This document shows positions 4,353-54,279 of a stretch of DNA of 64,000 nt, piece after piece (the stretch's first letter is position 1; the number at the start of each line of letters is the position of its first letter). The translations under genes and the position numbers were made by a program. The stretch is taken from NCBI RefSeq assembly GCF_051105105.1, contig NZ_CP185339.1; one strand, given 5' to 3'. Origin of the DNA: Nannocystis pusilla. GTDB taxonomy: Bacteria > Myxococcota_A > Polyangia > Nannocystales > Nannocystaceae. Under the pieces are notes generated by a model. That model was not told where the DNA came from. It did no database searches and worked only from the letters and a program-made list of their open reading frames with translations.

Positions 4353-5656
4353 TTGACCGGCGCGGTCGTCTGGGCCGACGAGCGCGGCGAGGTCACGCGC
4401 AAGCTGCTGCTGCAGGTCCAGCAGGACTCGCACCTCGGCCTGCTGCACCGCGACGGCCGCGGCAACCTCCTCTCGCTGGCGCGCCGCGGCAAGCAGCTGT
4501 TCGTCGCCACGCTGGAGCCGACCGGCCTCCGCTTCGCCGGGCCGGCCGCCGAGGTCGACGAATTTCAGCTCGGCCGCCGCCACGGACGGCCTGGTCGCCC
4601 GCGTGAACGACAACCAGGTGATGTACCTCGGCCAGGACGCCGCGGTGCGCTTCACCCAGGAGCTGCCGAAGGGCGCCGTTCGGGCCGCGCATGTGTCCCC
4701 GCCGTCGTACGAGCCGCGGGTCACCCGCGACGGCAGCGCGCTGATCCTCGGCCTCTCGGACCAGCGGGCCGCCGAGCTGCGCTCGACCACCGGCGCCGTG
4801 CTGGCGCGCGCCGACAATTTTTCGGGCTACTTCGCCGGCGCCCTCGCGCTCGGGCAGGACGCCGCGCTGGTGTGGTTCCGCGGCGACGCGTTCCGGATGA
4901 CCGCCGCCGGCAGCGAGCAACTGCCGCTGAAGCTCCTCGACGCCGCGCCGATCGAGCGCACCGGCGGCGCCTTCGCCCTGGTCCGCACCGAGGAGGACCT
5001 CGGCCGCCTGATCGAGCCTCGACGCCGAGGGCCGCGAGCTCGCCGAGCTCGCCACGCTCGCCGCCGACGACGTCGGCAGCACCAGCGCCCTGTTCGTCAG
5101 CCAGGACGGCTCGCTGTTCACGGCCGCGGTCTACGACTCCAAACACGGCGAGCACGTCCCGCGCTGCTGGCTGCGCGAGGGCGCGACCTTCCGCGCCTTC
5201 CCGGCCCCGTGGGGCAGCCACGACTGGCCCTGCATCTCGGCCGACGGCCGACGCGCCGCCTGGCAGTCGCGCGACGGCGACTGCTGGGTCCTCCACCACA
5301 CGCACGACGGCCGCGAGCTCGCCCGGATCTCGCTGAAGGACGCCTGGCTCGGCGAGTTCGACGGCGCCGGCCGCCTGGTGCTGAAGAGCCAGGACCGACT
5401 CCACTGGTTCGACGCCGACGGCGAGCCGCTCGCCGAGGTCGCCCTGCCCGGCAAAGAGCGGATCTCGCCGCCGGTCACGCGCCTGCTCGCCACCGGGGGC
5501 ATGCTCGACATGCTCGCAGTGACGCCGCTCGGTTCCTTCGCCCTCGGCGCCACGGGCGATCCGGCCCCGCTCGCCCACCCGGCCGCGCTGGCCGCCACCG
5601 ACTCGCGGGTGGCCATCGGCCGCGGCTGGCCGCTGGAGGTCACCGACCTCCGCTGA
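4353..5656 (+). pseudogene. hypothetical protein gene interrupted by two 1-nt frameshifts (about 4575 and 5028)
   Basis: Three consecutive protein-like segments sit in frames 0 (4353-4570), 1 (4575-5030) and 2 (5030-5656; ...LKSQDRLHWFDADGEPL...). Each ORF turns into Arg/Pro-rich junk right after the junction. No recognisable domain. Confidence 0.45.
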
Positions 5657-5692
5657 GCCGGCGCGCGGGGCATCCGGCCGCGCTGCTGGCGT

Positions 5693-5770
5693 CGTGAACA
5701 TGCCCTAAAAAACATGTTCCATGTGACATGTCCGCAAAGGCATGCCCTGATGAACATGCCCTCTCGAACA
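5693..5770. repeat. cluster of five REP-like palindromic cores (RNCATGYCC) between convergent genes
   Basis: gaacatgccc / aacatgttcc / tgacatgtcc / aggcatgccc / gaacatgccc lie within about 75 bp between the 3' ends of the 4353..5656 gene and the dienelactone hydrolase gene. Confidence 0.7.
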
Positions 5771-5771
5771 G

Positions 5772-6608
5772 TCACGCCGCCGGCAGCAGCTTGCGCCGCA
5801 GCAGGTCGAGCACCTGCTGCAGCGCCGCGTGCGTCGGCTCGCCTGGCGCGTCGACGAGTCCGCCGGTCAGCACCGAGTGGTGTTTTTTCAAGATCTCCTC
5901 CGGATGGCCGTCGCGCTGCTCGAGCTCGACCGCGACGAAGCCATCGCCGAGGCGCTCGCGCAGGAACGCGAACCGCTCCGGCGGCACCAGCGGGTCGCCG
6001 TGGAAGCGCAGGCCGAGCACCTGCAGGCCCTCGCGCACGCACCGACCGGCGACCGTGGCCAGCTCCTCGGGCCCGCAGTCGATGCTCCGCCGCTGGCGCG
6101 CGGTCAGCCCGAGCGGCAGCGACGGCTGCGACAGCACCGGCACCAGCACCCGCGGCTCGGTCGCCATCGCCAGCGCGAAGCCCCCCGTGAAGCACATCCC
6201 GACCGCGCCCACGCCCGGCCCGCCGCAGCGCGCGTGCTCGTGGACCGCGAGCGCGCGCAGCCAGTCGACCACCGGCGAGCTGCGCCCGGTCGCCAGCATC
6301 GTGAACTCGCGGCTGACGCACACCTCGGCCAGCACCTTGACCGCGCCGCGCAGCCTTGCGAGCGGCCGCGCCCTGGCGGCGTCGAAGCCCGGGGTCCCGA
6401 ACAGCTGCGGCAGCGCCACCGACAGGCCGAGCGCCACCAGCCGGTCGGCGAACCCGAGCACCTGCGGCGAGATGCCCGGCATCTCGGTGATCACGAGGAC
6501 CGCCGGCCCCGCGCCCTTGCGGTACACCGGGTGCGTCACCCCGGCGTGGGTGAACGCCTCGCAGGTGAAGGTGCTCAGGTCGCCCTCGGGAGCCTTCGGT
6601 TTGGCCAT
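5772..6608 (-). CDS. dienelactone hydrolase family protein
   Basis: Start MAKPKAPEGDLSTFTCEAFTHAGVTHPVYRKG at 6608. The Cys nucleophile motif (VGMCFTGGFA) and overall alpha/beta-hydrolase DLH layout are present. Confidence 0.75.
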   Translation of the reverse strand: MAKPKAPEGDLSTFTCEAFTHAGVTHPVYRKGAGPAVLVITEMPGISPQVLGFADRLVALGLSVALPQLFGTPGFDAARARPLARLRGAVKVLAEVCVSREFTMLATGRSSPVVDWLRALAVHEHARCGGPGVGAVGMCFTGGFALAMATEPRVLVPVLSQPSLPLGLTARQRRSIDCGPEELATVAGRCVREGLQVLGLRFHGDPLVPPERFAFLRERLGDGFVAVELEQRDGHPEEILKKHHSVLTGGLVDAPGEPTHAALQQVLDLLRRKLLPAA

Positions 6609-10347: not shown

Positions 10348-11628
10348 ATGCCCCCCGACACCCATCGCGCCATTCACGCCGTCTGGCGCCTCGAGTCGGC
10401 CAGGCTGATCGCCGGGCTCACGCGATTCGTCCGCGACATCGGCATCGCCGAGGAGCTGGCCCAGGACGCGCTGGTCGCCGCGCTCGAGCAGTGGCCGACC
10501 GCGGGCGTGCCCAACAACCCCGGCGCGTGGCTCATGACCACCGCCAAGCACCGCGCCATCGATCACCTGCGGCGAGTCGAGCGGCACGGCCGCAAGCACG
10601 TCGAGCTCGGCCACGCCATCGACGCCCGCCAGGACTCGCCCGCCGCCGTGCTCGACGCGGCGCTCGACGACGACGTCGGCGACGACCTCCTGCGCCTCGT
10701 GTTCACCTCGTGTCACCCCGCGCTGTCGAGCGAGGCCCGCGTCGCGCTGACGCTGCGCCTGCTCGGCGGCCTCACGACCCAGGAGATCGCCCGCGCCTAC
10801 CTCGTGCCCGAGCCGACGATCGCCCAGCGGATCGTCCGGGCCAAGCGGACCCTCGCCGAGGAGAACGTGCCCTTCGAGGTCCCCCGCGGCCCCGAGCTGG
10901 CCGCGCGCCTGGCCTCCGTCCTCGAGGTCATCTATCTGATCTTCAACGAGGGCTACTCGGCCACCTCCGGCGACGACTGGATGCGCCCGGCCCTGTGCGA
11001 GGAGGCCCTGCGCCTCGGCCGGATCGTCGCCCAGCTGATGCCCAGCGAGCCCGAGGTCCACGGCCTGGTCGCGCTGATGGAGATCCAGGCCTCGCGCTCG
11101 CGGGCGCGGGTCGGCCCCGGCGGCCAGCCGGTCCTGCTGAACGAGCAGAACCGTGCGCTGTGGGACCGCCTGCTGATCCGCCGCGGCCTGGCCGCGCTCG
11201 AGCGCATCGACGCTCTCGGCGGCGCCCGCGGCCCCTACGCCCTGCAGGCCGCCATCGCCGCCTGCCACGCCCGCGCGCTCACCCCCGAGGCCACCGACTG
11301 GACCACGATCGCCGCCCTCTATGCGGCCCTCTATCAATTGTCGCCCTCGCCGGTCATCGAGCTCAACCGCGCGGTCGCGGTCGCCATGGCCGAGGGCCCC
11401 GCGGCCGGCCTGGCGATCGTCGATCGCCTGGTCGACGAGCCCGCCCTCGCCCGCTATCACCTGCTGCCGGGCGTGCGCGGCGACTTTTTGTTCAAGCTCG
11501 GCCGCTTCGCCGAGGCCCGCGAGGCCCTGGAGCGCGCCGCCTCGCTCACCCGCAACGCCCGCGAGCGCGACCTCCTGCGCGAGCGCGTCGCCGCCTGCGA
11601 CCGCGCCCTCGCCGGCGAATCGACCTGA
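10348..11628 (+). CDS. ECF-type RNA polymerase sigma factor with C-terminal TPR-like extension (ECF42/DUF6596-like)
   Basis: Internal ATG at 10348 (MPPDTHRAIHAVWRLESARLIAGLTRFVRDIGIAEELAQDALVAALEQW). Sigma-70 region 2 and region 4 (LGGLTTQEIARAYLVPEPTIAQRIVRAKRTL) are followed by an about 200-aa helical extension. Confidence 0.8.
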   Translation: MPPDTHRAIHAVWRLESARLIAGLTRFVRDIGIAEELAQDALVAALEQWPTAGVPNNPGAWLMTTAKHRAIDHLRRVERHGRKHVELGHAIDARQDSPAAVLDAALDDDVGDDLLRLVFTSCHPALSSEARVALTLRLLGGLTTQEIARAYLVPEPTIAQRIVRAKRTLAEENVPFEVPRGPELAARLASVLEVIYLIFNEGYSATSGDDWMRPALCEEALRLGRIVAQLMPSEPEVHGLVALMEIQASRSRARVGPGGQPVLLNEQNRALWDRLLIRRGLAALERIDALGGARGPYALQAAIAACHARALTPEATDWTTIAALYAALYQLSPSPVIELNRAVAVAMAEGPAAGLAIVDRLVDEPALARYHLLPGVRGDFLFKLGRFAEAREALERAASLTRNARERDLLRERVAACDRALAGEST

Positions 11629-16724: not shown

Positions 16725-17445
16725 CTACGCCCCGATCCCGCAGCACGACAGCGCCTTGGCCGCGAGCAGGTCGTGGTTCTCGCAGACCGGCTCGAACGCG
16801 CACTCGCCGAACTTGACGTCGTCCTCGAAGCACTCGCAGGCCGCCTCGGTGCAGCGCATCGCCAGCGTCGGCTCGCCGGCGCACTCGCGCGACCACTCGC
16901 ACATCGACTCATTGCCGCCGCCGCCGATCGAGCACACGTTGCCGAACCCGCACACGTCCTCCTGGGCGATCGCCAGGTCGGTGCAGGGCCCTTCCTCGCC
17001 CTGCTCGAGCTCCTCGACTTGCTGGCACGTCAGGCCCGCCTGACAGTCCATCGTCGCCGTCGCGGCCGCCTGGCACTCGCCCTCGAGCTCCGCCAGAATC
17101 CGCCTCGCAATCCTCCGGGCACGTCATCGCCTCTTCGGGCGTGAGGCCGACGCACTTGGCCAGCATCACGCAGTACTTCTGACAGGTCGTCGCCTCCGGT
17201 GGGTCGCCGGCGCTGGTGCTGGTCTCGCCGGGGTCCGTCGACTCGCCGGTGGTCGCCGGCGTCGTCGGCGAGCCCGTCGTGGTCGGCTCCGTGGCGCCGT
17301 CGGTGGACGTCCCCGACTCGGTCGCCGGCGCCGTGTCGCCGCCGCTCGTCGACGGCTCCGTGGCCGCGTCGGTGTCGTTCTTCTCGCCGGGACAGGCCCC
17401 GAGCAACAGGGCCGTGAGGATGAGTCCGTTTCTGGGATGGAGCAT
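16725..17445 (-). CDS. Cys-rich secreted lipoprotein, hypothetical (1-nt frameshift near 17050-17110)
   Basis: MLHPRNGLILTALLLGAC lipobox plus Thr/Pro linker plus Cys motifs sits in the 16909..17520 frame. It continues in ORF 16725..17051 (CxxxC-rich, 14 Cys). Confidence 0.5.
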
Positions 17446-17589
17446 GTCGGTTCTCCCTGGCCCGCGGCCTGGCAACCCGGCGCGCGGCGACCCCCGAAAC
17501 CGCGCGCCCTCGCAGGCCATTCCTGCGGGTCGGATCGGCGTCGGGTCGGAACTGCTCGCGCCCCTTCACCCTCGCAGTGGCCGTACCTC

Positions 17590-17613
17590 GGCTATTCTGT
17601 CGGCTATTCTGTC
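17590..17613 (+). promoter_or_regulatory. perfect 12-bp direct repeat GGCTATTCTGTC x2 immediately upstream of start codon of 17617 gene
   Basis: A comparatively AT-rich tandem duplicate abuts the ATG. It may be an operator or leader element. Confidence 0.3.
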
Positions 17614-17616
17614 GCC

Positions 17617-18582
17617 ATGGTCTGGGGCGGAGCCACGTTCGACGCCATCGCGCGGCTGAAGCGGGAGCAGAGCGCCCTCGCCAGCAAGCGCAGCTCGATC
17701 CGCCCGCACGAACTGGGCGCGGGGCCGAAGAAGGAACCGTTCGACTGCATGTTCCTGTGCAACGTCTGCGGCTACCTCAGCGACACCGACCCGCCCTGCC
17801 CCTCGTGCGGTCGCCAGGCCTGGATCGACCTCGACTACTGGGGCCTCGCGGAGGCTCTGCGCGCCCGCGAGGAGGAGGAGCGGCGACACCCGCCCGATCG
17901 CCTCAAGTGGCAGATCCGGCTCGCCTCCCTGGCCGCTGGCGCGGCGATCGGCGTCGGCGGTGCCGCCGGCCTCGCGCTCGCCGGCGTCGCTGCCCTCGGC
18001 TGGCCCTCGCTGCTCGGTCTGGGCGGCGGCGCCACGGCGCTCACCCACCGCCTCGGCCGGCGCCGGATCGGCCGCAGCTTGATGCTCCGCGGCGGCGCTC
18101 GACCGACGCGCTGGCACATGCCGCTGCCGCTGGTCGCCGAGGACGCCGTCGTCGCCGCGCGCGTCGTCGGCCAGCCGCAGCCGCGCGGCGCCCTGCTCAC
18201 CGCCCCGTTCTCCGGCCGCCCCTGCCTCGGCTACGAGCTCGGCGTCCTGTTCGACGCGCCCGGCGACGCCTGGCCGCCGATCTGGGTCCTCCGCGAGATG
18301 CACTCGTGCGCCTTCGACGTCCACGACCGCCACGTCGAGGCCGACGCCGTCACCCTCGCGCTGCCCATCACCCCCGTCGCCCAGCCGTTCATGATCGAGA
18401 GCGCCCGCCAGCGGTTCCTCCGCCAGCGCGGCCTCTTCCTCCTCGACGGCCGCTTCGACCTGTTCGAGGCCATCCTCGAGCCCGGCGCGGTCTACGAGCT
18501 GCAGTGGGCCTCGGCGCCGCAGGGCGCCCCACCCGTCATTCACGCCACCAGCGGCGTCCTCCCGCGCGGCGCCTACCGCTGA
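17617..18582 (+). CDS. zinc-ribbon membrane protein, hypothetical
   Basis: Internal ATG at 17617 (MVWGGATFDAIARLKREQ). A CNVCGYLSDTDPPCPSCGRQAW zinc ribbon and a Gly/Ala-rich TM segment (LASLAAGAAIGVGGAAGLALAGVAALGWPSLLGLGGG) precede a C-terminal soluble domain. Confidence 0.55.
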   Translation: MVWGGATFDAIARLKREQSALASKRSSIRPHELGAGPKKEPFDCMFLCNVCGYLSDTDPPCPSCGRQAWIDLDYWGLAEALRAREEEERRHPPDRLKWQIRLASLAAGAAIGVGGAAGLALAGVAALGWPSLLGLGGGATALTHRLGRRRIGRSLMLRGGARPTRWHMPLPLVAEDAVVAARVVGQPQPRGALLTAPFSGRPCLGYELGVLFDAPGDAWPPIWVLREMHSCAFDVHDRHVEADAVTLALPITPVAQPFMIESARQRFLRQRGLFLLDGRFDLFEAILEPGAVYELQWASAPQGAPPVIHATSGVLPRGAYR

Positions 18583-18771: not shown

Positions 18772-19893
18772 ATGCCCACCCGCCGCCGCTTCCTCGCGCT
18801 CACCGCCGCTCTCTCGGCAGCAGCCTGCAGACCGCGAGCCACGGCCACCCCGCCCGAGCCCCCGCCCCGCCCGCTCACCCCGCCCGAGCCCCCGCCCCGC
18901 CCGCTCACCATGCTCGTCTTCGGCGGCACCGGCTTCATCGGCCCGCACCTCGTGCGCCACGCGGTCGCCCGCGGCCACAGCGTCTCGATCTTCACCCGCG
19001 GCCGGCGCAAGGTCGACCTGCCCGACAGCGTCGAGCGGCTGCTCGGCGACCGCGACGGTCAGCTCGGCATCCTCGAAGGCAGGCGCTGGGACATCGTCGT
19101 CGACGACTCCGCCACCCGCCCCGAATGGGTCCAGCAATCGACGCAGTTGCTCAAGGACCAGGTCGGCCGGTATCTCTACACCTCCTCGACCGGCGTCTAC
19201 TACCCCTATTTGAAGCCCGGCGCCGACGAGACCTGGCCGGTGCGCACCGAGGTCACCGATCCCGAGGACGGCTCCGAGGCCTACGGCGTGGCCAAGGCCC
19301 GCTGCGAGCGCGAGGTCCTGCAGACCTTCGGCGAGCGCGGCCTCGTCGTCCGCCCGACCTACATCGTCGGCCCCGGCGACACCACCGACAGGTTCCCCTA
19401 CTGGCCCGTCCGCCTGCAGCGCGGCGGCGACGTGCTCGCCCCCGGGCGGCGCGACGACCCGGTCCAGCTCATCGACGTCCGCGACCTCGCCGAGTTCATG
19501 CTGCGCCTGCTCGAGGACGGGCGCAGCGGCATCTACAACGCGGTCGGCCCCAGCGAGCCGATCACCATGCCGCAATTCCTCGAGGCCGCGCGGGCCGCCG
19601 TCAACCCCGAGGCGCGCCTGGTATGGGTCGACGACTACGCCTTCCTCGAGGCCCACGGCATCACCGATGCTGTCCCGTGGGTCATGTTGAAGGGCAACGA
19701 CCTCGGCCACATGTCGACGCGCAACGCCAGGGCCGTGGCCGCCGGCCTGCGGTTCCGCCCGCTGGCCGACACCGTGCGCGACACCCTCGCCTGGTGGCCC
19801 ACCGTCCCCGCCGAGCGGCGCGACGCGGCGCAGTTCGCCATCACCCCCGAGCAGGAGGCGAAGGCGCTGGTCGACTGGCGCGCGCGCGGCTGA
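18772..19893 (+). CDS. Tat-secreted NAD-dependent epimerase/dehydratase (extended SDR) family protein
   Basis: MPTRRRFLALTAALSAAAC twin-arginine signal and a Rossmann LVFGGTGFIGPHLV motif. An in-frame 30-bp tandem duplication encodes TPPEPPPRPL x2 at about 18841-18900. Confidence 0.8.
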   Translation: MPTRRRFLALTAALSAAACRPRATATPPEPPPRPLTPPEPPPRPLTMLVFGGTGFIGPHLVRHAVARGHSVSIFTRGRRKVDLPDSVERLLGDRDGQLGILEGRRWDIVVDDSATRPEWVQQSTQLLKDQVGRYLYTSSTGVYYPYLKPGADETWPVRTEVTDPEDGSEAYGVAKARCEREVLQTFGERGLVVRPTYIVGPGDTTDRFPYWPVRLQRGGDVLAPGRRDDPVQLIDVRDLAEFMLRLLEDGRSGIYNAVGPSEPITMPQFLEAARAAVNPEARLVWVDDYAFLEAHGITDAVPWVMLKGNDLGHMSTRNARAVAAGLRFRPLADTVRDTLAWWPTVPAERRDAAQFAITPEQEAKALVDWRARG

Positions 19894-20554
19894 CCGCCCG
19901 CGGCGCCTCCGCCTCGGGGTCCCAGGTCGGCCGCCGGCCTGGCGCTCCGGACATGTCCTTCAGACCAGGCTCATCCCGCGGCACCAGCGCGACCCGCAGC
20001 AGCTGCAGCTCGCCGCGGTGCGCCGCGAGGAAGCGGACCAGGCGGTCGAAGCGGCGGTGATCGCCCCCCTGCCGCGACCACGGCACGTCGACCCGCAGCG
20101 TCGCCGGCCCCGTCCACGCCAGCCGCGCGTCGGGCTCGACCAGTCGCACCGCCGCCACCGCGAGCTCGCTCGGCCGGCGCAGCACCAGCTCGATCTTGCC
20201 GAACCACACCGCGCCGTGCAGCAGCCACGGCTTCAAATCGCCGACCGGCACCGGGTAGCGGGCGATCCGGCGCCGCAGCCAGCCATCGGCCGGGACCTCG
20301 CGGTCGACCGCGCTGCGGGCCAGCGCGACCACGTTCCACAGCAGGAACGCCGCGAACAGCTGCGGCACCATCGCCACGCCGCACACGACCGCGGTGAACA
20401 CCCCCGCCACGCGCGCGGCGCCCCAGAACTCGTGCGGCGGCCCCGGTTCGGACCAGGCCGGCAGCCCCTCCCGCAGCGCCCGCTCGAGCGCCGTCTCGAC
20501 GAAGCTGCGATACGGCTCGCGGGCGACGGGGGGCTGTCCTTCGAGCGCACGCAT
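19841..20554 (-). CDS. membrane protein, hypothetical (co-directional downstream of RING-TerD gene)
   Basis: Two predicted TM helices (VAGVFTAVVCGVAMVPQLFAAFLLWNVVAL). The C-terminal 50 codons overlap the epimerase gene end and a REP-like element (GLKDMSGAP), so the true stop may lie earlier. Confidence 0.4.
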   Translation of the reverse strand: MRALEGQPPVAREPYRSFVETALERALREGLPAWSEPGPPHEFWGAARVAGVFTAVVCGVAMVPQLFAAFLLWNVVALARSAVDREVPADGWLRRRIARYPVPVGDLKPWLLHGAVWFGKIELVLRRPSELAVAAVRLVEPDARLAWTGPATLRVDVPWSRQGGDHRRFDRLVRFLAAHRGELQLLRVALVPRDEPGLKDMSGAPGRRPTWDPEAEAPRAVSRARASRPAPSPPARG

Positions 20555-20620: not shown

Positions 20621-23231
20621 TCACGACAGCAGGTCGCTGGCCGCGATCGGTGCGATGACCTGCTCGCGGAACAGCGCGTAGCACACGCTGCCCGCCGGCA
20701 GCTCGAGGTCGCCGCGGACCAGCGCCGCGAACACCGGCGGCCCCGAGGCCGCGGGCAGCACCGCCGGGCTCGCCCCCTCGCCGGCGCGGATCCGCCGCAA
20801 GAACTGCTCCGTCGATTCATTGGCCATACGGGCGAACCCGCGCGCCCCGCCCGCCCCGCGCACGATCACCTGCCGACCGCGCGCCGCTGCGTGCAGCAGC
20901 GCCAGCTCGAACATCGAGCTCCGCACGCCGCTGGCGAAGTAGTCGATCATCTCCGGACAGATCTTCGTGATCGCCCCGTTCGACGTCGCCACGTTGTTCA
21001 TCGCCAGCTGCCCGGTCGAGTAGACGTCGAGCCAGTGCATCGTCGACTCGGCGACGTTCGAGCACCAGCGGCATGAACACCCCGTTGTCGCCCTGCAGGT
21101 CGAACTTGAGCTCGACCTTGCGCGCGTCGAATTGCTTCCCGCCGAGGTCGGCGCGCAGCATCATCCCGGCCCACGCCCGCTCGAGCCGCGAGAACGGCAT
21201 GCCGGCGTAGTTGTTGACGACCATCACCGCGTAGCGGATCCCGCGGGCCCGGGCGCGCTCCCGGTGGACGTCGACGAATTCGGCCGCGCCGTCGGGGAAC
21301 GGCCCGCTGCGCAGGTCGCCGGAGCTCTGCGCGATCGGCTGACCGTCGGGCCCGTCGAACCGCAATTGATAATAGGAGCACACGCCGACGTACTCCCAAT
21401 TTTCGTCGTAGAAGGCGACCGACAGGTCGATGTCGGTGGTGTGGCCGTCCTGCGGCTCGCACCAGTGCAGGAACAGCCGCACCACCTCGCCGGCCGGCAG
21501 CGCCACCCGCGAGCCGCGCGGCAGCGACACCGCGGCGCGGCTGGCCGTGCGCTCGTTGAACGGCACGATGACGTCGCGCAGCCCCTCGTCGAGCACGCAG
21601 GCGTCGAACCCCGGCTTGCCTTCCAGCCGGCGCAGCAGCTCGCGCTCGACAGCCTCGCTCGCCGCCGCGATCGCCCGCGGGGCCAGCGGGGCCCGCCCGT
21701 CGGGGGTCGACGTGCCCTTCGTGACCTGTCCCTTGGGCCAGAACACCCGCACCGCCGCCGGCCGCCCGCGCGTCGGCAGGTGGCCGTGCAGCGTCAGCAG
21801 CAGCGCGTTCTGCAGCCGCGGCGCCGCCGCGACGAACGCCGAGATCACCACGTCCTGCGCGCCCGGGTCGGCGCCCGCGACCCGCAGCGCGTGGTCGAAG
21901 CGCCGGCCCAGCTCGCCCGGCCGCGCCCGCAGCCGCTCGATCATCGCCGGCGCGTCGCCGGCCCGCGCCGCCGCCTCGATCGCCGCGTGGAAGCCGACGA
22001 ACCGCGGCGCCGGCGTGCCGTCGGGCGCCTTCTTGCGCACCACCGCGAACGCCCGCGCCACGCCCGGGAACCGCTCGGCGAACTCGTGCGGGTGGAGGAA
22101 CTGCCCGAGCCACTGCCAGTACGAGCGGTGGCGCAGCATGTCCTCGACGAGTCCATCCGGGTGCATCGACTCGAGGTGGGCCAGCACCGCCCGCCGCAGC
22201 GGCCGGCGCAGCGGCGCCACCTTGAAGCGATACTTGTGGATCGTCAGCGCCACCATCTTGGCCTTCGGCAGCGTGCTCGCGCCGCCGAACACCTGCTTGA
22301 GCTTGGCCGCGAACCCGCCGGCGAGGCTCCCCCCGGGCGGCTGCTCGACCCACCGCTTCTCGATCGTGCCCTGCAGCGACGGGTCGGCGTCGGAGTAGAC
22401 CGCCAGAGTGCGCAGCACGTCGGTCGCGGTCGTCAGGTGGGCCCGCGCCACCGCGAAGGTCGCCGGCGCGTTGCAATTGCGCAGCAGCGCGCCGAAGATC
22501 CGCGCCACGTTCTCGCGCACCGCGATCGTGTCCGGCAGCCAGGCCAGCACCTGCTCGCCGAACTCGTTCACCAGCGTCCCGAGGTCGCCGGCGTCGATCG
22601 GCGACATCACCTGCTTGCGGGCGCAGAACGACTCGAACAGCCCCCGCGCCGCGGCCGGCAGGTCCTCGCCGAGGTCGAGCAGCTTGAAGCGGACCTTCTC
22701 GCGCGGCAGGCTGCGCTCGAGGAACCGCCCCGGCTTGAAGAACGGCGACTCGCGGTCGACGTGGTGCTCGCACACCGGGCACGCGCTGTAGTTCGCGCCG
22801 TCGAAGCAGCGGTCGCAGACCACGTGCATGCACGGGCTCAGCACGTGGGTCGTGCCGACCCGCCGACAGAACACGCACGGCTGGCCCTCGGCCTGCAGGA
22901 GGTGGCACAGCACCTTGCGCAGGTACAGCTCCGACGTGTCCTTCGGGACATCCTCCGGAAAGCGCCGGAACAGCGGCGTGTAGCGGACGTTGCCGCCGAC
23001 CTGGGCCGCCAGCGCGGTCGCCACGAAGCGCGGCTGCAGCGCGAGCTGGTCGGGGGCCAGGGTCGCCAGGCGCTGTCGCAGCCGCCACGACACCACGTAG
23101 CCGAGCTGCGCCAGCTCGAGCTCGATCGCCTGCAGGTGCCGCTCGCTCGCGGTCGCCGCGCCCGGGGCCACGAACACCAGCCCCTGGCGGCGCAGCAGCG
23201 CCTCGCGGGTGGCGGTGTACGTGGCGTCCAT
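20621..23231 (-). CDS. about 870-aa protein with N-terminal RING-HC (C3HC4) zinc finger and C-terminal TerD-like domain (1-nt frameshift near 21040-21080)
   Basis: CVFCRRVGTTHVLSPCMHVVCDRCFDGANYSACPVC fits the RING consensus C-x2-C-x11-C-x-H-x2-C-x2-C-x8-C-x2-C. The C-terminus (DIDLSVAFYDE...GDLRSGPFPDGAAEFVDV...YAVMVVNNY...FSRLERAWAGMM...NGVFMPLVLER) aligns motif by motif with TerD. The last about 140 aa continue in ORF 20621..21040. Confidence 0.6.
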
Positions 23232-23408
23232 GGCGGGCCGGGAAAAGGTGGAGGTAAGCGTCCGAGCTGTTTTTCTGAAAAGAGTGAGAAGGAAGCCCGG
23301 ACTGAGCCTCCGCGCCCAGCGTAGAGCGGCCGCGACGCCGACGTCAAGCCGCGCGGCCGCTCGCGGCGCGCCTGCACCTTCGCGCGATCTTTGCTACCAA
23401 CGACGGTG

Positions 23409-24086
23409 ATGCCGCGAAAGCGCGCCCGAACGCTCCTCGCCTGGAGCGGCGGCAAAGACTCCGCGTGGGCCGGCGTCGCGCTCGCCCGCGACCCTTCGGT
23501 CGAGCTCGTCGGCCTGCTCACCACCACGCGTGAGGACGACGCGCGGGTCGTCATGCACCGCACCCCGCGCGCCGCCTTGCTGGCCCAGGCCGACGCTCTC
23601 GGCCTGCCGCTGTGGGAGGTCGCCCTGCCCGACCCGTGCCCCAACGCGGTCTACGCGGCCAGGATGTCCGCAGTGATCGCTCGCGCCCGCGCCGAGCAGG
23701 TCGAGGCGATCGCCTTCGGCGACCTGTTCCTGGCCGACATCCGGGCTTACCGCGAGGACATGCTCCGAGGGACAGGTCTGCGCGCCGTCTTCCCGCTGTG
23801 GGGCGAGGACACCGCCGCGCTCGCGGAGACCATGATCGCCGGCGGTCTGCGGGCCACCGTGGTCGCAGTCGACCTCGCGCGCCTGTCCGCCGCCTGGCTC
23901 GGCCGCGGCTTCGACCGCGAGTTCCTGGCCGCGCTGCCGCCCGACGTCGATCCGTGCGGCGAGCGCGGCGAGTTCCACACCCTCGTCACCGACCTGCCCG
24001 GCCTCGCCCGCCCGCTCGCGCTCCGCCCCGGCGCCGCGTTCGAACGCGACGGCCACGCCTTCCTCGACGTCCAGCTCGACGCCTGA
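23409..24086 (+). CDS. PP-loop ATP pyrophosphatase (Dph6/MJ0570-related adenine nucleotide alpha-hydrolase)
   Basis: LAWSGGKDS PP-loop motif at the N-terminus and an about 225-aa length typical of the family. Confidence 0.7.
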   Translation: MPRKRARTLLAWSGGKDSAWAGVALARDPSVELVGLLTTTREDDARVVMHRTPRAALLAQADALGLPLWEVALPDPCPNAVYAARMSAVIARARAEQVEAIAFGDLFLADIRAYREDMLRGTGLRAVFPLWGEDTAALAETMIAGGLRATVVAVDLARLSAAWLGRGFDREFLAALPPDVDPCGERGEFHTLVTDLPGLARPLALRPGAAFERDGHAFLDVQLDA

Positions 24087-30136: not shown

Positions 30137-31430
<1,294 letters not shown>

Positions 31431-32029
31431 GGGAGGGTTTCCTTTCTCTGTCTCGAAAGCAGCCGGCGGGTCAATCCCGCCTGAGCTCTTCCGGACGAAC
31501 TATTGGTTGGTAGTCCCGGGTAGGCAAAGCTAAGGTGTGGTGAAGCGCAAAGGAGGACGGCGCCCCATTCTGCGACACCCCCCTCTACGAGGCCCTACAG
31601 CCGCGAATTTCAGGGAATTGCCGGGGTCCCGCGAGCCCGGCGGGGCGCGCGGAGAACCGCTCGAACAGGCGTTATTTCCGGTCGCTGCGGCCGCCTCGCC
31701 CACTGCTATCAATGTCGTCCGCCTGCCGCGGCCGTCCGCCGCGCCGGAGTCGTCCGCGCCTGCGCGATATCGAATGCCATCAGGCGATCGATGGGCGCGA
31801 AAATGACAGTACATCACCGCCGCGATCCATCTGACAGCGCACCGAACATTTCCGCGACCGGGCGGCGGTATGGCCAATGGCTCACCGAAACGTCGCAGCG
31901 GCCCGCCCGCGCGAACCACCGCGCGCCGCCCGTTTCCGCCGCGCGCCTGGGCGGCGCGCCTAAAGCGTCCGCTCGTCGTCCGCTCTCCGCCGGCCCGTGC
32001 GACCGCCCGGACACGTCAGGTCGGCGGCC

Positions 32030-41091: not shown

Positions 41092-43195
41092 ATGCCGACC
41101 TCGCACCGCGTCTGTCTCCTCCTCCTCGCCGCTGCTGCCTGCGACGCTCCGCCGTCGAAGGACGCGCCGAAGGTCGCCACGATCCAGGCCAAGCGCGCCC
41201 TACCGGCGGACAAGGCCGACGCCGCGCCCGCCGACGACAAGGCGCGCGACGGCAAGTCCGACGCCCCGCCCGTCATCGTCGCGGGCCCGCCTGCGTCGGA
41301 CGACATCGTCAACATGCCTGACAGCTTGACCGCGGAGAACATCCCGCCGATCCCGCGGGCCATCGCCGACGGCGTCGGCACCTACTCCGAGGCGCGCTCG
41401 GCCGCCGCGCTCGAGTGGCACCCCAAGGATCACTCGCTGCTGATCCGCACCCGCTTCGCCGAAGCGCCCCAGATCCACGAGGTCAAGATGGCGGGCGGCG
41501 ATCGCCGCCAGCTCACCTTCTTCAACGACAGCGTCGGCGGGGCCATCTATCCGCCGGTCGGCGACGGCAGCTTCTTCGTGTTGTCGAAGGACATCGGCGG
41601 CAACGAGTTCGCGCAGAACTGGCGCTTCGATCGCGCCGACGGCAAGCTCACCCTCCTCACCGACGGCGCCTCGAAGAACAGCCTCGGCCCGTGGACCCGC
41701 GGCGGCGAGAAGTTCGCCTACACCTCGACCCGGCGCAACAAGAAGGACACCGACTTCTACGTCGTCGACCCGCGCGACCCGACCACCGACAAGCTGGTCG
41801 CCGAGGTCGAGGGCGGCGGCTGGTCGCCCGCGGACTTCTCCGCCGACGGCAACCAGATCCTCGCGGAGGAGTACGTCTCGGTCAACGAGAGCTACCTGTG
41901 GCTGTTCGACCTGGCCACCGGCCAGCGCACCAAGCTGACCGAAAAGACCGGCGACGTGCCGGTCGTCTGGTCGGGCGCCAGCTTCACCGCCGACGGCAAG
42001 GGCGTCATCACCACCACCGACGGCAAGGGCGAGTTCCGCGAGCTCGTCACCCTCGACCTCGCCACCAAGCAGACCAGCCCGCTCGGCCCGCCGGTGCAGT
42101 GGGACGTCGAGAGCTTCGCCATCAGCCACGACCGCAAGAAGCTGGCCTCGATCGTCAACGAGGCCGGCGTCGATCGCCTGCGGCTGCACGACCTGCCGAG
42201 CGGGCGCGAGCGGCCGATCAAGACCCGCCTGCCGGCCGGCACCATCGGCGGCCTCAACTTCCACCCCGACGGCAAGCTGCTGGCCTTCAGCCTGTCGTCG
42301 GCGCGCTCGCCCGCCGACACCTACGTGCTCGAACGTCCAGAGCGGCGTCATCGAGCGCTGGACCGAGAGCGAGGTCGGCACCCTCAACCCCGGCACCTTC
42401 AGCGAGCCCGAGCTGGTGAAGTGGAAGAGCTTCGACGACCGCGAGATCTCCGGCTTCTACTACAAGCCCCCGGCGCGGTTCGCCGGCAAGCGCCCGGTCG
42501 TCGTCATCGTCCACGGCGGGCCCGAGGGCCAGTCGCAGCCCGGCTTCATCGCCCGCAACAACTACTACCTCGACGAGCTCGGCGTCGCCCTGCTCTACCC
42601 CAACGTGCGCGGCTCGACCGGCTACGGCAAGACCTTCGTGAGGCTCGACAACGGCGCCAAGCGCGAGGACTCGGTCAAGGACCTCGGGGCCGCGCTCGAC
42701 TGGATCGCCAGCCAGCCCGATCTCGACGCCGATCGCATCATGATCATGGGCGGCTCGTACGGCGGCTACATGACCCTGGCCGCCTCGGTCCACTTCGCCG
42801 ACCGGATCCGCTGCGCCGTCGACATCGTCGGCATCAGCAACTTCGTCACCTTCCTCGAGAACACCGAGGCTTACCGCCGCGACCTCCGCCGCGTCGAGTA
42901 CGGCGACGAGCGCGACCCGGAGATGCGCAAGAAGCTGCTCGAGATCTCGCCCCTCACCCGCGCCGCCGAGATCAAGAAGCCGCTGTTCGTCATCCAAGGC
43001 AAGAACGACCCGCGCGTGCCGGCCAGCGAGGCGCACCAGATCGTCGCCACCCTCAAGCAGGGCGGCACGCCGGTGTGGTACCTCGAGGGCAAGGACGAGG
43101 GCCACGGCTTCCAGAAGAAGCGCAATCAGGACTACCAGATGTACGCCACGATCCTGTTCATGAAGAAGTTCCTGCTCGACGGGATGGGCGAATGA
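41092..43195 (+). CDS. S9 family prolyl oligopeptidase-type serine peptidase lipoprotein (1-nt frameshift near 42332)
   Basis: MPTSHRVCLLLLAAAAC lipobox and an N-terminal beta-propeller (TolB/PD40-like). The catalytic domain with GGSYGG nucleophile elbow is in ORF 42416..43195. They join at TYVLD/VQSGVIERW after removing one base in ctcgaacgtc. Confidence 0.75.
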
Positions 43196-52410: not shown

Positions 52411-52931
52411 CTACGGCGTCGTTTCGGCCGCCAGCCCGCGCGTGCAGCGGGATCGCGCTCGCCGCCGTGACGCCGACGACAGCCCGGACCGCGACCGCCT
52501 TCCTCAACGCGGGCCCACGACCACGAGCGAGCGCCTGCAGTCCCCGACATCGGCGTCGCCCGACGCATCCGCCTCACGAGCCTCGTCGAGACCGCGAGCC
52601 CGCATCGATCTTCGCGGGCCCGAGATTCCCCGCCTCGTCCTCGGACATGGGCGCCCACCCGACGGAGGCGCCGACGAGCCGCGCCTGATCGGACCGACGC
52701 GCCATCGAGGCCCTGCGCGGCTCGCGACGGCTCGCGGCCGATCGCCCGCGCACCCGACCCCTCGGCCCACTCGATCCGAAAAGCCGTGCGCGGCTCGCCC
52801 CGACGCCTCGGCCGCCCCGCCTGCCGGGCGCTCGCGGCCCTCCGCCCGCGCCCCGAAAACCTCGCCGTCGTCGCCCCTGAGGCCCGCAGGAGCCCGCGCG
52901 CGGCCTCCGGGCGTGTTAGCATGGCGGTTGC

Positions 52932-54279
52932 TTGTCCCGCCCGAGCAAGCCGCGTCCGCCGCCGCCGCCTCCGCCTGCCTTGCGTCCGCCTGCAGCCGCG
53001 CTCGACACGCCGGCGCGCCCTGGCCCTGGCGACGGCCTCGCCCGCGCGCGGGCCCTCGAGCACACCGGCGACCACGCCCGCGCCGCCGCCCTGCGCCTCG
53101 AGTACGCCCACACCTTGTGCGGCACGGCCCAGCGGATCGCCCTCCTGCGCGAGGGCGCAGCGCGGCACTCCGGCGCCACCGAGGAGGGCCGCAGCCTCCA
53201 CCAGGCGCTCGCCGAGACCCTCCTGCGCCACGCCGAATTCATGGAAGACGGCGCCCCGCGGCGCGCGATCCTCATGGAAGCCGCGCGTGCGCTCGAGGAG
53301 GCCGACCAGGGCGCCATCGCCGGCGAGATCTACGAGCGCCTGCACATGCTGCGGCGCGCCGCCGTCGCCTACGAGCAGGCCGGCGCCGTCACCCAGCTCG
53401 AGTACGTGCTCGGCCTCATCGACCGCATCGAGCACGCCGAGGCCGTCCTCCAGCGCGCCAGCGACGAGATCGACGCCGCCCTGCGCGAGGGTCGGCGGTT
53501 CTTCGCCCATGGCCTGCTGCAGGAGCACCTGCAGGACGCGCGGACCACCCGCGGCCCGCTCGCCCACAGCGGCGCTCCGCTGCTGCGCGCCGCCCTCGCC
53601 CGCGTCCAGGCCGACCTCGGCGTCGCCCTCCCGCGCGGCCAGCGGGTCGACCTGCGCTGGGGGACAGGTCAGGTCACGCGCGTCGTCTTGCGGGCCGATC
53701 TGCGGCTCGGGCGCTCGCCCGACGTTCGAGCTCAGCCTCGGCGGCGCCAGCCTCTCGCGCGAGCACGCCGCCTTGCGGCTCGAGGCCATCGCCGCCGCCG
53801 CGGGCAGCAGCGCCCACGGCCTCGACGAGGTCGAGCTGGCCGTCGCCCTCGTCGACCTCGGCTCGCGCGCCGGCACCTTCTGGCGCGGCGAGACCCTCGC
53901 CCCCGGCGAGCCCGTCGCCCTCGAGGGCCCCGGCGAGCTCACCCTCGGCCTGTCCGCCGCTCGCATCGAGGTCCACCCGCTCCCGCGCGAGCGCGGCGAG
54001 CTCGGCGCCCTCCTGCGCCCGCAGGGCCAGGGCGCCGCTTCCCCGTGGACCCTCTACCTCCCCGGCGGCGGCCCCCTGTGGCTCGCCCCCGATCGCCCGA
54101 TCCCCGCCGTCCTCGAGCTACGCCCGCCCTTCATCGCCGTGCGGATCGCCGCCGGCGTGCGCGCCCAGCTCGGCCAGGAGCCGCTCGGCCCCGGCGCCAG
54201 CATCGAGCTCCTCCACGGCGACCGCCTCCACCTCGACCTGCCCGACGGCCGCCTGACGCTCGAGATCTCGATGACCTGA
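52932..54279 (+). CDS. FHA-domain protein with N-terminal helical domain (1-nt frameshift near 53700)
   Basis: TTG start. The N-terminal about 250 aa are helical in frame 0. The C-terminal FHA-like core (DLRLGRSP...FELSLGGASLSREHAALRLE...GSRAGTFWRGETL) continues in the 52786..54279 frame. Confidence 0.6.

Follow-up and report, generated by a model that had tools for sequence, protein, structure and literature searches.

A Nannocystis pusilla protein matching the MXAN_6230/SCO0854 family combines an internal RING finger with a divergent TerD-like domain and is interrupted by a probable assembly frameshift

We analysed a gene at positions 20621-23231 (minus strand) of a 64,000-nucleotide stretch of the Nannocystis pusilla genome (RefSeq assembly GCF_051105105.1, contig NZ_CP185339.1; this whole stretch is called the window), for which an original prediction, made from the sequence alone, had proposed a fusion of a RING finger with a TerD-like domain. 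In identity and architecture, the gene is almost certainly the Nannocystis ortholog of the MXAN_6230/SCO0854 family of RING domain-containing proteins. It encodes a soluble, stand-alone protein of 869 amino acids (aa). From the N-terminus, its five parts are a helical domain, a RING finger of the C3HC4 type, a helical region resembling Ro60/TROVE, a divergent TerD beta-sandwich and, at the C-terminus, a small domain that is possibly of the von Willebrand factor A (vWA) type. Taken as a whole, the explanation that we favour with modest confidence is that of an ortholog of a catalogued family, with an artefactual frameshift and a mechanism in which the protein would act as an RNA platform.

The NCBIfam equivalog model NF041916 (MXAN_6230/SCO0854 family RING domain-containing protein) matched the protein with 983.3 bits (E 1e-295; curated cutoff 600 bits), and the alignment placed aa 9-865 on model positions 2-842 of 842 in one stretch. 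It belongs to this family over its full length, and the present copy differs from the other members only by a single-base insertion. A homolog search covering 5.8 billion proteins gave no fewer than 454 homologs. Each of the 120 listed entries is one polypeptide, in nearly every case 835-925 aa long, and several homologs, including those of N. exedens and other Nannocystis, already carry the name 'RING finger family protein 4' or the NCBIfam family name. The closest homologs are Nannocystis proteins with 95, 87, 82 and 80% identity, and the DNA of the gene, although not the same as in either, matches that of N. pusilla Na p29 and Nannocystis sp. RBIL2 with 96.6-96.9% identity. A genome scan found 79 loci in Myxococcota, Oxalobacteraceae (Massilia, Duganella, Janthinobacterium and Undibacterium), Planctomycetota, Acidobacteriota, Verrucomicrobiota, Obscuribacterales and others. 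The original prediction had regarded the RING-TerD fusion as an undescribed architecture; given the full-length match to NF041916 and the Pfam family PF14447, the architecture is catalogued and therefore not new. The fusion itself survives comparison with related genomes, as the two halves form one open reading frame (ORF) of ~865 aa there. The RING-TerD fusion family was reportedly first described through comparative genomics by Burroughs, Iyer and Aravind in 2011 (Mol Biosyst 7:2261). The Pfam text for PF14447 is reported to describe this RING as joined to a helical domain at the N-terminus, to ROT/TROVE-like repeats and to a TerD domain at the C-terminus and to suggest a role in RNA processing, and this domain order agrees with the architecture recovered independently here. 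No difference from it was detected, and the present analysis adds the possibly vWA-like C-terminal domain and the phage relatives that lack a RING.

The window has a GC content of ~72% and therefore contains long spurious ORFs in every frame; the real coding frame was picked by the GC content at third codon positions (GC3) in each frame. The combined ORF and GC3 analysis placed the start codon (ATG) at 23231 and the stop codon at 20621-20623 on the minus strand, which are exactly the gene coordinates of the original prediction. GC3 (~0.98) indicated a single coding frame from 23231 down to ~21060 and another frame from there to the stop, with the change near 21050-21100. Two ORF pieces, one of 804 aa (20817-23231) and one of 139 aa (20621-21040), were joined into one protein, the genuine coding sequence of the 804-aa ORF ending at ...GVFMPLVLE. 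At the junction the window reads CTCGAACGTCGCC, compared to CTCGA(C/T)GTCGCC in five Nannocystis genomes, and the peptide over the junction is PLVLD(V/I)A(E/A)STMHWLDVY in the six closest homologs (homolog peptide PLVLDVAESTMHWLDVY). From the homolog peptides and the DNA of the five genomes it therefore follows that one extra A is present at ~21057/21058 (minus strand, codon 725/726), turning GAC into GAAC, a position that agrees with the GC3 switch, and that the repaired protein is 869 aa long. The gene's 2611 nucleotides are thus accounted for by 869 codons plus a stop codon and the one extra base. The repaired protein is 95% identical to its nearest homolog, a Nannocystis protein that is likewise 869 aa long. 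The frameshift falls within the final strands of the TerD-like domain and, of that domain, cuts off only those strands. Programmed frameshifting was considered and rejected, as the site (CUC GAA CGU) has no slippery motif and relatives carry a plain in-frame GAC (GAT in one genome).

A GC3 frame plot of the whole window showed five further junctions at which the upstream frame stays open well beyond the coding boundary. A clear second frameshift was found at ~42331 in a gene of the S9 prolyl-oligopeptidase type (~41090-43195, plus strand), where the Peptidase_S9_N propeller spans the junction and the catalytic Peptidase_S9 domain lies in another frame. A frameshift is probable at ~53716 in an FHA-domain gene (~52920-54277, plus strand), the FHA match starting exactly there (LGR/RPTF...SREHAAL). 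An apparent gene at 4353-5654 (plus strand), without a Pfam match, has candidate frame changes at ~4564 and ~5014 and occupies three frames by GC3. The region 30139-31499 (minus strand; GC 0.67) encodes a highly repetitive acidic protein with GFGKDVDQ repeats and shows a frame change at ~30708 inside the repeats; the 40-42 kb part of the window is likewise lower in GC (0.625). In the N. pusilla Na p29 assembly (locus L005), the tblastn matches of a TetR-like gene and of a copy of a gene for a 237-aa protein, which in the window lies next to the RING gene, are split (~5500-6200 and 10685-11400). Indels appear to be common in these Nannocystis assemblies.

Within the present sequence the frameshift is genuine, and the extra A is very likely an assembly or sequencing artefact and not a true inactivation. 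The alternative, that the gene is a true pseudogene in this strain in which a mutation removed the last TerD strands and the C-terminal domain, we consider unlikely, even though the change from GAC to GAAC lies outside any long homopolymer, hence is not a classic homopolymer miscall, and the site is intact in the five related genomes. The remaining gene is undamaged, combining 95% amino acid identity to the nearest homolog with no other stop or indel, and GC3 is still 0.88-0.98 past the shift. Moreover, at least one more gene of these 64 kb, that of the S9 peptidase, carries a frameshift, and as many as four further junctions look similar; genuine pseudogenes would not be this frequent in a free-living bacterium. 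Frameshifts at such a density are better explained by an indel-prone assembly than by true gene decay.

The RING finger occupies aa 119-164 (22740-22877, minus strand). The pattern C-x2-C-x11-C-x-H-x2-C-x2-C-x8-C-x2-C, which had been proposed for residues ~110-160, was located at aa 119-154 with C119, C122, C134, H136, C139, C142, C151 and C154 as zinc ligands. The Pfam search that had been suggested as a check gave a highly significant match to Prok-RING_4 (PF14447, 'Prokaryotic RING finger family 4'; E 3.3e-18), in which aa 119-164 cover model positions 1-46 of 46 with 65.8 bits at a gathering threshold of 27 bits; the eukaryote-derived model zf-C3HC4_3 reached 26.7 bits, just below its 27-bit cutoff. 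All but one of the eight ligands are invariant in a set of 48 homologs that extends to 51% identity, the exception being C142, which is conserved in at least 90%. In a sequence-profile search of the PDB, the family profile matched only RINGs. The best matches among solved structures were RING E3 ligases of the IAP type (BIRC7/ML-IAP 4auq, cIAP and XIAP; E 1e-3 to 0.05), which belong to the same C3HC4 spacing class. BIRC7 has an Arg after the last Cys, whereas the family RING has a Glu at this position, and the RINGs of IAP proteins are C-terminal, whereas the family RING is internal and has no known bacterial E2 or ubiquitin-like protein (Ubl) as partner.

The divergent TerD-like beta-sandwich covers aa ~568-740 (21011-21530, minus strand) and spans the frameshift. 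The original prediction had assigned the last ~200 residues to TerD; a TerD domain is indeed present, but its extent is smaller, and the last 125 residues are separate. The motifs on which that assignment was based, DIDLS (aa 600-604), a GD...E segment (GD at aa 638-639), YAVMVVNNY (aa 667-675) and FSRLERAWAGMM (aa 680-691), were all found and were aligned by hhalign in the same register with real TerD proteins. The proposed search with the Pfam TerD model PF02342 gave no match at all, neither with the full protein at E ≤ 1 nor, at E ≤ 10, with the domain isolated from ten diverse members, the family domain scoring below the Pfam TerD threshold. Structure prediction, also proposed as a check, did recover the TerD fold. 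An AlphaFold2 (AF2) model was built from an alignment of 48 sequences (predicted local distance difference test 87.2, predicted template modelling score 0.84), and in a Foldseek comparison with the PDB the five best matches were the TerD-family structures 3ibz, 2kxt, 2qng and chains A and B of 2qz7, all with probability 1.00 and target template modelling scores of 0.63-0.69. For profile-profile comparison, real terZ, terD and terE and other TerD-family genes were taken from four plasmids. With shallow profiles hhalign gave a probability of only 11%, in exactly the register of the original prediction, and with a 134-sequence family profile against 11 TerD/TerE/TerZ sequences it gave 97.7% (E 2.3e-12, 135 columns); controls with reversed sequences gave 0.4-0.7%. 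TerD homology of aa ~568-740 is therefore established by the fold and by the deep profile-profile comparison, and is provable solely by methods of these two kinds.

The family domain thus has its fold and profile-level homology in common with the TerD family (Klebsiella TerD 2kxt, Streptomyces SCO6318 2qz7 and plasmid TerD/TerE/TerZ). Stand-alone TerD proteins of ~190 aa are encoded in ter operons, whereas the family domain sits in an 869-aa protein outside any ter operon. The calcium signature of the TerD references, GDN(R/L)TGEGDGDDE, has become SGDLxSAPxPxGAsE in the family, where G-D and the last E alone are kept and the acidic run GEGDGDDE corresponds to xAPxPxGAxE. With the calcium signature degenerated to GD...E, the idea of a Ca2+ sensor is not supported.

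The N-terminal helical domain (aa 1-112; 22896-23231, minus strand) has helices at aa 3-16, 30-41, 49-55, 60-78 and 99-112 in the AF2 model. A helical repeat region of the Ro60/TROVE type follows the RING at aa ~180-540 (21612-22694, minus strand). In fold comparison the AF2 model aligned with each of three independent Ro60/TROVE structures over ~347 residues at a root mean square deviation (rmsd) of ~4 Å, whereas generic helical repeats of the HEAT type aligned over 100-200 residues, mostly at a much higher rmsd; the modelled middle region is Ro60-like by fold only. No Ro60 was present among the PDB sequence matches at E ≤ 10. The C-terminal alpha/beta domain (aa 745-869; 20624-20998, minus strand) is, according to the model, possibly a reduced domain of the vWA type, its weak structural matches being Ro60 and vWA domains. 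Ro60 and Rsr (1yvp, 2nvo, 9l5y) are RNA-binding proteins composed of TROVE and vWA with a helical-repeat fold like that of the family middle. Compared to them, the family protein has a TerD domain between the helical region and the C-terminal domain as well as an extra N-terminal domain and the RING, and it shows no sequence-level similarity and has no adjoining Y-RNA-like gene. The ~360-residue Ro60-like region had gone unnoticed in the original prediction, and it changes the most likely function. In a separate observation, Shinella and Rhizobium plasmids (L090, L091) were found to encode TROVE proteins of very divergent sequence, 22-23% identical to human Ro60, whose genes are next to rtcR and in divergent orientation to it. 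A linkage between Rsr and RtcB in RNA repair is known, and the TROVE-rtcR pairing on these plasmids fits it.

An exhaustive HMMER search with a profile of the sandwich over 1.84 billion representatives revealed a wider superfamily, with 2067 clusters at E ≤ 1e-3, 1479 at ≤ 1e-10 and 197 at ≤ 1e-30. By regular expression, and hence approximately, 69 of 111 full-length representatives have a full C3HC4 RING (median 873 aa), 14 have zinc site 2 only and 28 have no RING pattern (median ~763 aa). Half-RING relatives (P0250, P0238, P0213; aa ~115-160) keep C3, H4, C7 and C8, which form zinc site 2, and have lost site 1, which suggests a stepwise decay or build-up of the RING in the superfamily. One half-RING metagenomic relative is encoded on phage-like contigs, at a distance of 1.3 kb from the gene for an RNA ligase. 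Among sequenced phages, tblastn found relatives in Rhodococcus phage Weasels2, Rhodobacter phage RcXuper, Ruegeria phage RpAliso, Mycobacterium phage WXIN, Xanthomonas phages XacN1 (ORF396) and Xoo-sp13, Salicola phage SCTP-2 and Lactobacillus phage LpeD (LpeD_166), all annotated as hypothetical proteins. Five phage homologs (L100, 4437-6515; L103, 4291-6453; L104, 5644-7731; L102, 5962-8064; L105, 5197-7437) matched the family hidden Markov model (HMM) in the N-terminal, middle and TerD-like parts with E values of 5e-24 to 5e-81, and a RING was found in none of the five. These large-phage relatives of ~690-750 aa share with the family the N-terminal helical domain (HMM positions 13-111), the middle region and the TerD-like part, and the RING is dispensable in relatives.

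The genomic context of several phage relatives is related to RNA. The Weasels2 homolog gp266 lies in a tRNA array directly after tRNA-Asn and 3 kb from RtcB, and phage Trina, which has the same host, encodes a canonical Ro protein in the equivalent tRNA array. RcXuper_7 is located in a tRNA array, one short ORF from a nucleotidyltransferase, and a nucleotidyltransferase is found 1.4 kb from the XacN1 homolog. That RING-less phage relatives are surrounded by genes for tRNAs and RNA repair suggests a role connected with RNA. In the literature, phage ROT/TROVE proteins are seen as platforms for RNA repair and TerD as a domain that senses ligands (PMC7824862, PMC7159879). In Trina (L101), a 209-nucleotide 'tRNA-OTHER' (pseudo) at 4643-4851 lies directly upstream of the Ro gene and could be a Y-RNA/YrlA-like RNA.

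In bacteria the family gene stands alone. A gene for a predicted membrane protein of 237 aa (19841-20554, minus strand) is located 66 nucleotides downstream of the RING gene in the window. In line with the original prediction, it is on the same strand and its hydrophobic stretch (aa ~43-84) is compatible with two transmembrane helices; it has no Pfam, NCBIfam or PADLOC match, and a promoter and terminator scan, otherwise uninformative, found no terminator-like site between the two genes. The proposed operon and partnership does not hold beyond synteny at the level of the genus: tblastn found the 237-aa gene at 6 of the 79 loci, in Nannocystis only, making it a genus-specific neighbour and not a conserved partner. 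All eight window neighbours compared by tblastn were found at Nannocystis loci only, and all-against-all clustering of the ORFs that flank the gene at the 79 loci gave no family that was present at more than six of them. The Pfam-annotated neighbourhoods of Pyxidicoccus, Janthinobacterium and a metagenome-assembled genome had nothing in common, and in all three the gene downstream of the family gene is convergent. A search for E1/E2/Ubl and TerB/TerC neighbours had been recommended; within ±8 kb in these three distant genomes no E1, E2, Ubl or JAB gene was found, and the same neighbourhoods contain no TerB, TerC or TerY/TerF gene and no PRTase/HAD biosynthetic gene, whereas a plasmid ter operon used for comparison does carry Ter-linked genes. 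The PADLOC models for anti-phage defence gave a noise match of 10.8 bits only. Two other neighbours in the window were observed. A Dph6-like ATP pyrophosphatase gene (23391-24086, plus strand; Diphthami_syn_2, E 8e-27) is divergent from the RING gene and syntenic only in Nannocystis. The other is an ORF of 381 aa (17437-18582, plus strand) that has a motif resembling a zinc ribbon, CxxC...CxxC (CNVCGYLSDTDPPCPSCG), and a hydrophobic stretch after it; PADLOC gave no match for this ORF, and its conservation is limited to some of the Nannocystis loci.

We tentatively propose that the Ro-like and TerD core is an RNA platform, a possibility we put forward with caution. The conserved core of N-terminal helical domain, Ro-like region and TerD would bind RNA or serve in RNA surveillance in a manner comparable to Ro60/Rsr. 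Its TerD module, having lost most of the classical calcium site, would more likely bind a ligand or a partner, and the RING may be an accessory module for protein interaction that was added or kept in the bacterial clade and need not depend on a ubiquitin-like conjugation system. Several results weigh against the explanation as a whole. The Pfam TROVE model matched neither the full protein nor the isolated sandwich of ten members, and hhalign of the family profile against ten Ro60/TROVE sequences (human Ro60, verified against the PDB, and nine bacterial and phage proteins) gave a probability of 0.3%. As the Ro60 link has no sequence support, we therefore call the region Ro60-like by fold and do not claim homology. 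Rfam gave no match at threshold in the window and, at eight homolog loci, only one tRNA and no Y RNA, a search that would miss a divergent, undescribed RNA. The bacterial neighbourhoods (79 loci, three of them annotated) give no functional hint, and no experimental study of MXAN_6230 or SCO0854 was found in the open-access literature. The phage context concerns RING-less relatives and not the bacterial RING clade, and it is RNA-related in some phages only, the contexts in WXIN and LpeD being uninformative. In the bacterial clade the strictly conserved ligands imply that the RING is functionally important, and it could still be part of an E3. Finally, the frameshift is judged a probable error from assembled sequence and comparison.

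Both the E3 role and the Ter-type membrane stress sensor suggested by the original prediction are less likely than the RNA platform; of that interpretation, the RING and TerD domain calls stand, while the novelty, the E3 and Ter partners and the membrane partner are not supported. A true ligase of the E3 type, in which the RING recruits a bacterial E2-like protein charged with a Ubl, both encoded elsewhere in the genome, and in which the Ro-like and TerD parts choose the substrate, seems improbable to us. The finger is a complete cross-brace C3HC4 finger with conserved ligands, and its nearest solved sequence relatives are the active IAP-type E3 RINGs. In eukaryotic RINGs the hydrophobic residue after Cys1 and the proline of C-P-x-C contact E2 enzymes, and both are kept in the family. 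Set against this, the three annotated neighbourhoods lack genes for conjugation enzymes, and none of the neighbouring gene families is shared by more than 6 of the 79 loci. The Arg following the last Cys of BIRC7 activates E2~Ub, and the family has Glu there. Moreover, 42 of the 111 related clusters have half a RING or none, and none of the five phage homologs studied has one.

A calcium or stress sensor of the Ter type that works together with the downstream two-transmembrane protein is very improbable. The TerD fold and homology are real, and the 237-aa gene with its hydrophobic hairpin is co-directional, 66 nucleotides away and not separated by a terminator-like site. However, the calcium signature GDNxTGEGDGDDE is reduced to GD...E, and TerB, TerC, TerY and biosynthetic Ter genes are absent nearby in the three annotated neighbourhoods. 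The 237-aa gene is restricted to Nannocystis, the downstream gene is convergent in three other lineages, and genomes without any 237-aa homolog are the usual situation. A merely coincidental likeness to RING and TerD in a sequence rich in Cys, His and GC could draw on the silence of the Pfam TerD model, even at E ≤ 10 in ten members, but is already refuted by the results given above, among them the Prok-RING_4 match (E 3.3e-18), so that practically no weight is left to it.

These results correct a false call of novelty, the RING-TerD fusion being a curated family with hundreds of members, and draw attention to a RING protein that is widespread in bacteria and has no ubiquitin-like system in its vicinity. 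A bolder possibility, to which we give little credence, is that this family, together with the phage relatives that lack a RING, represents a second and so far unrecognised lineage of RNA-surveillance proteins of the Ro60 kind, with a TerD-derived sensor between the Ro-like region and the possibly vWA-like C-terminal domain and a built-in RING that in bacteria would recruit a degradative or modifying partner. If true, the bacterial protein would, in one polypeptide, be analogous to the Ro52(TRIM21)/Ro60 pairing of eukaryotes, and the phage relatives would act in tRNA/RNA repair during infection. The TerD homology, the likeness to Ro60 by fold only and the RNA context in phages provide a concrete hypothesis that is testable in either of two genetically tractable species, Myxococcus xanthus and Streptomyces coelicolor.

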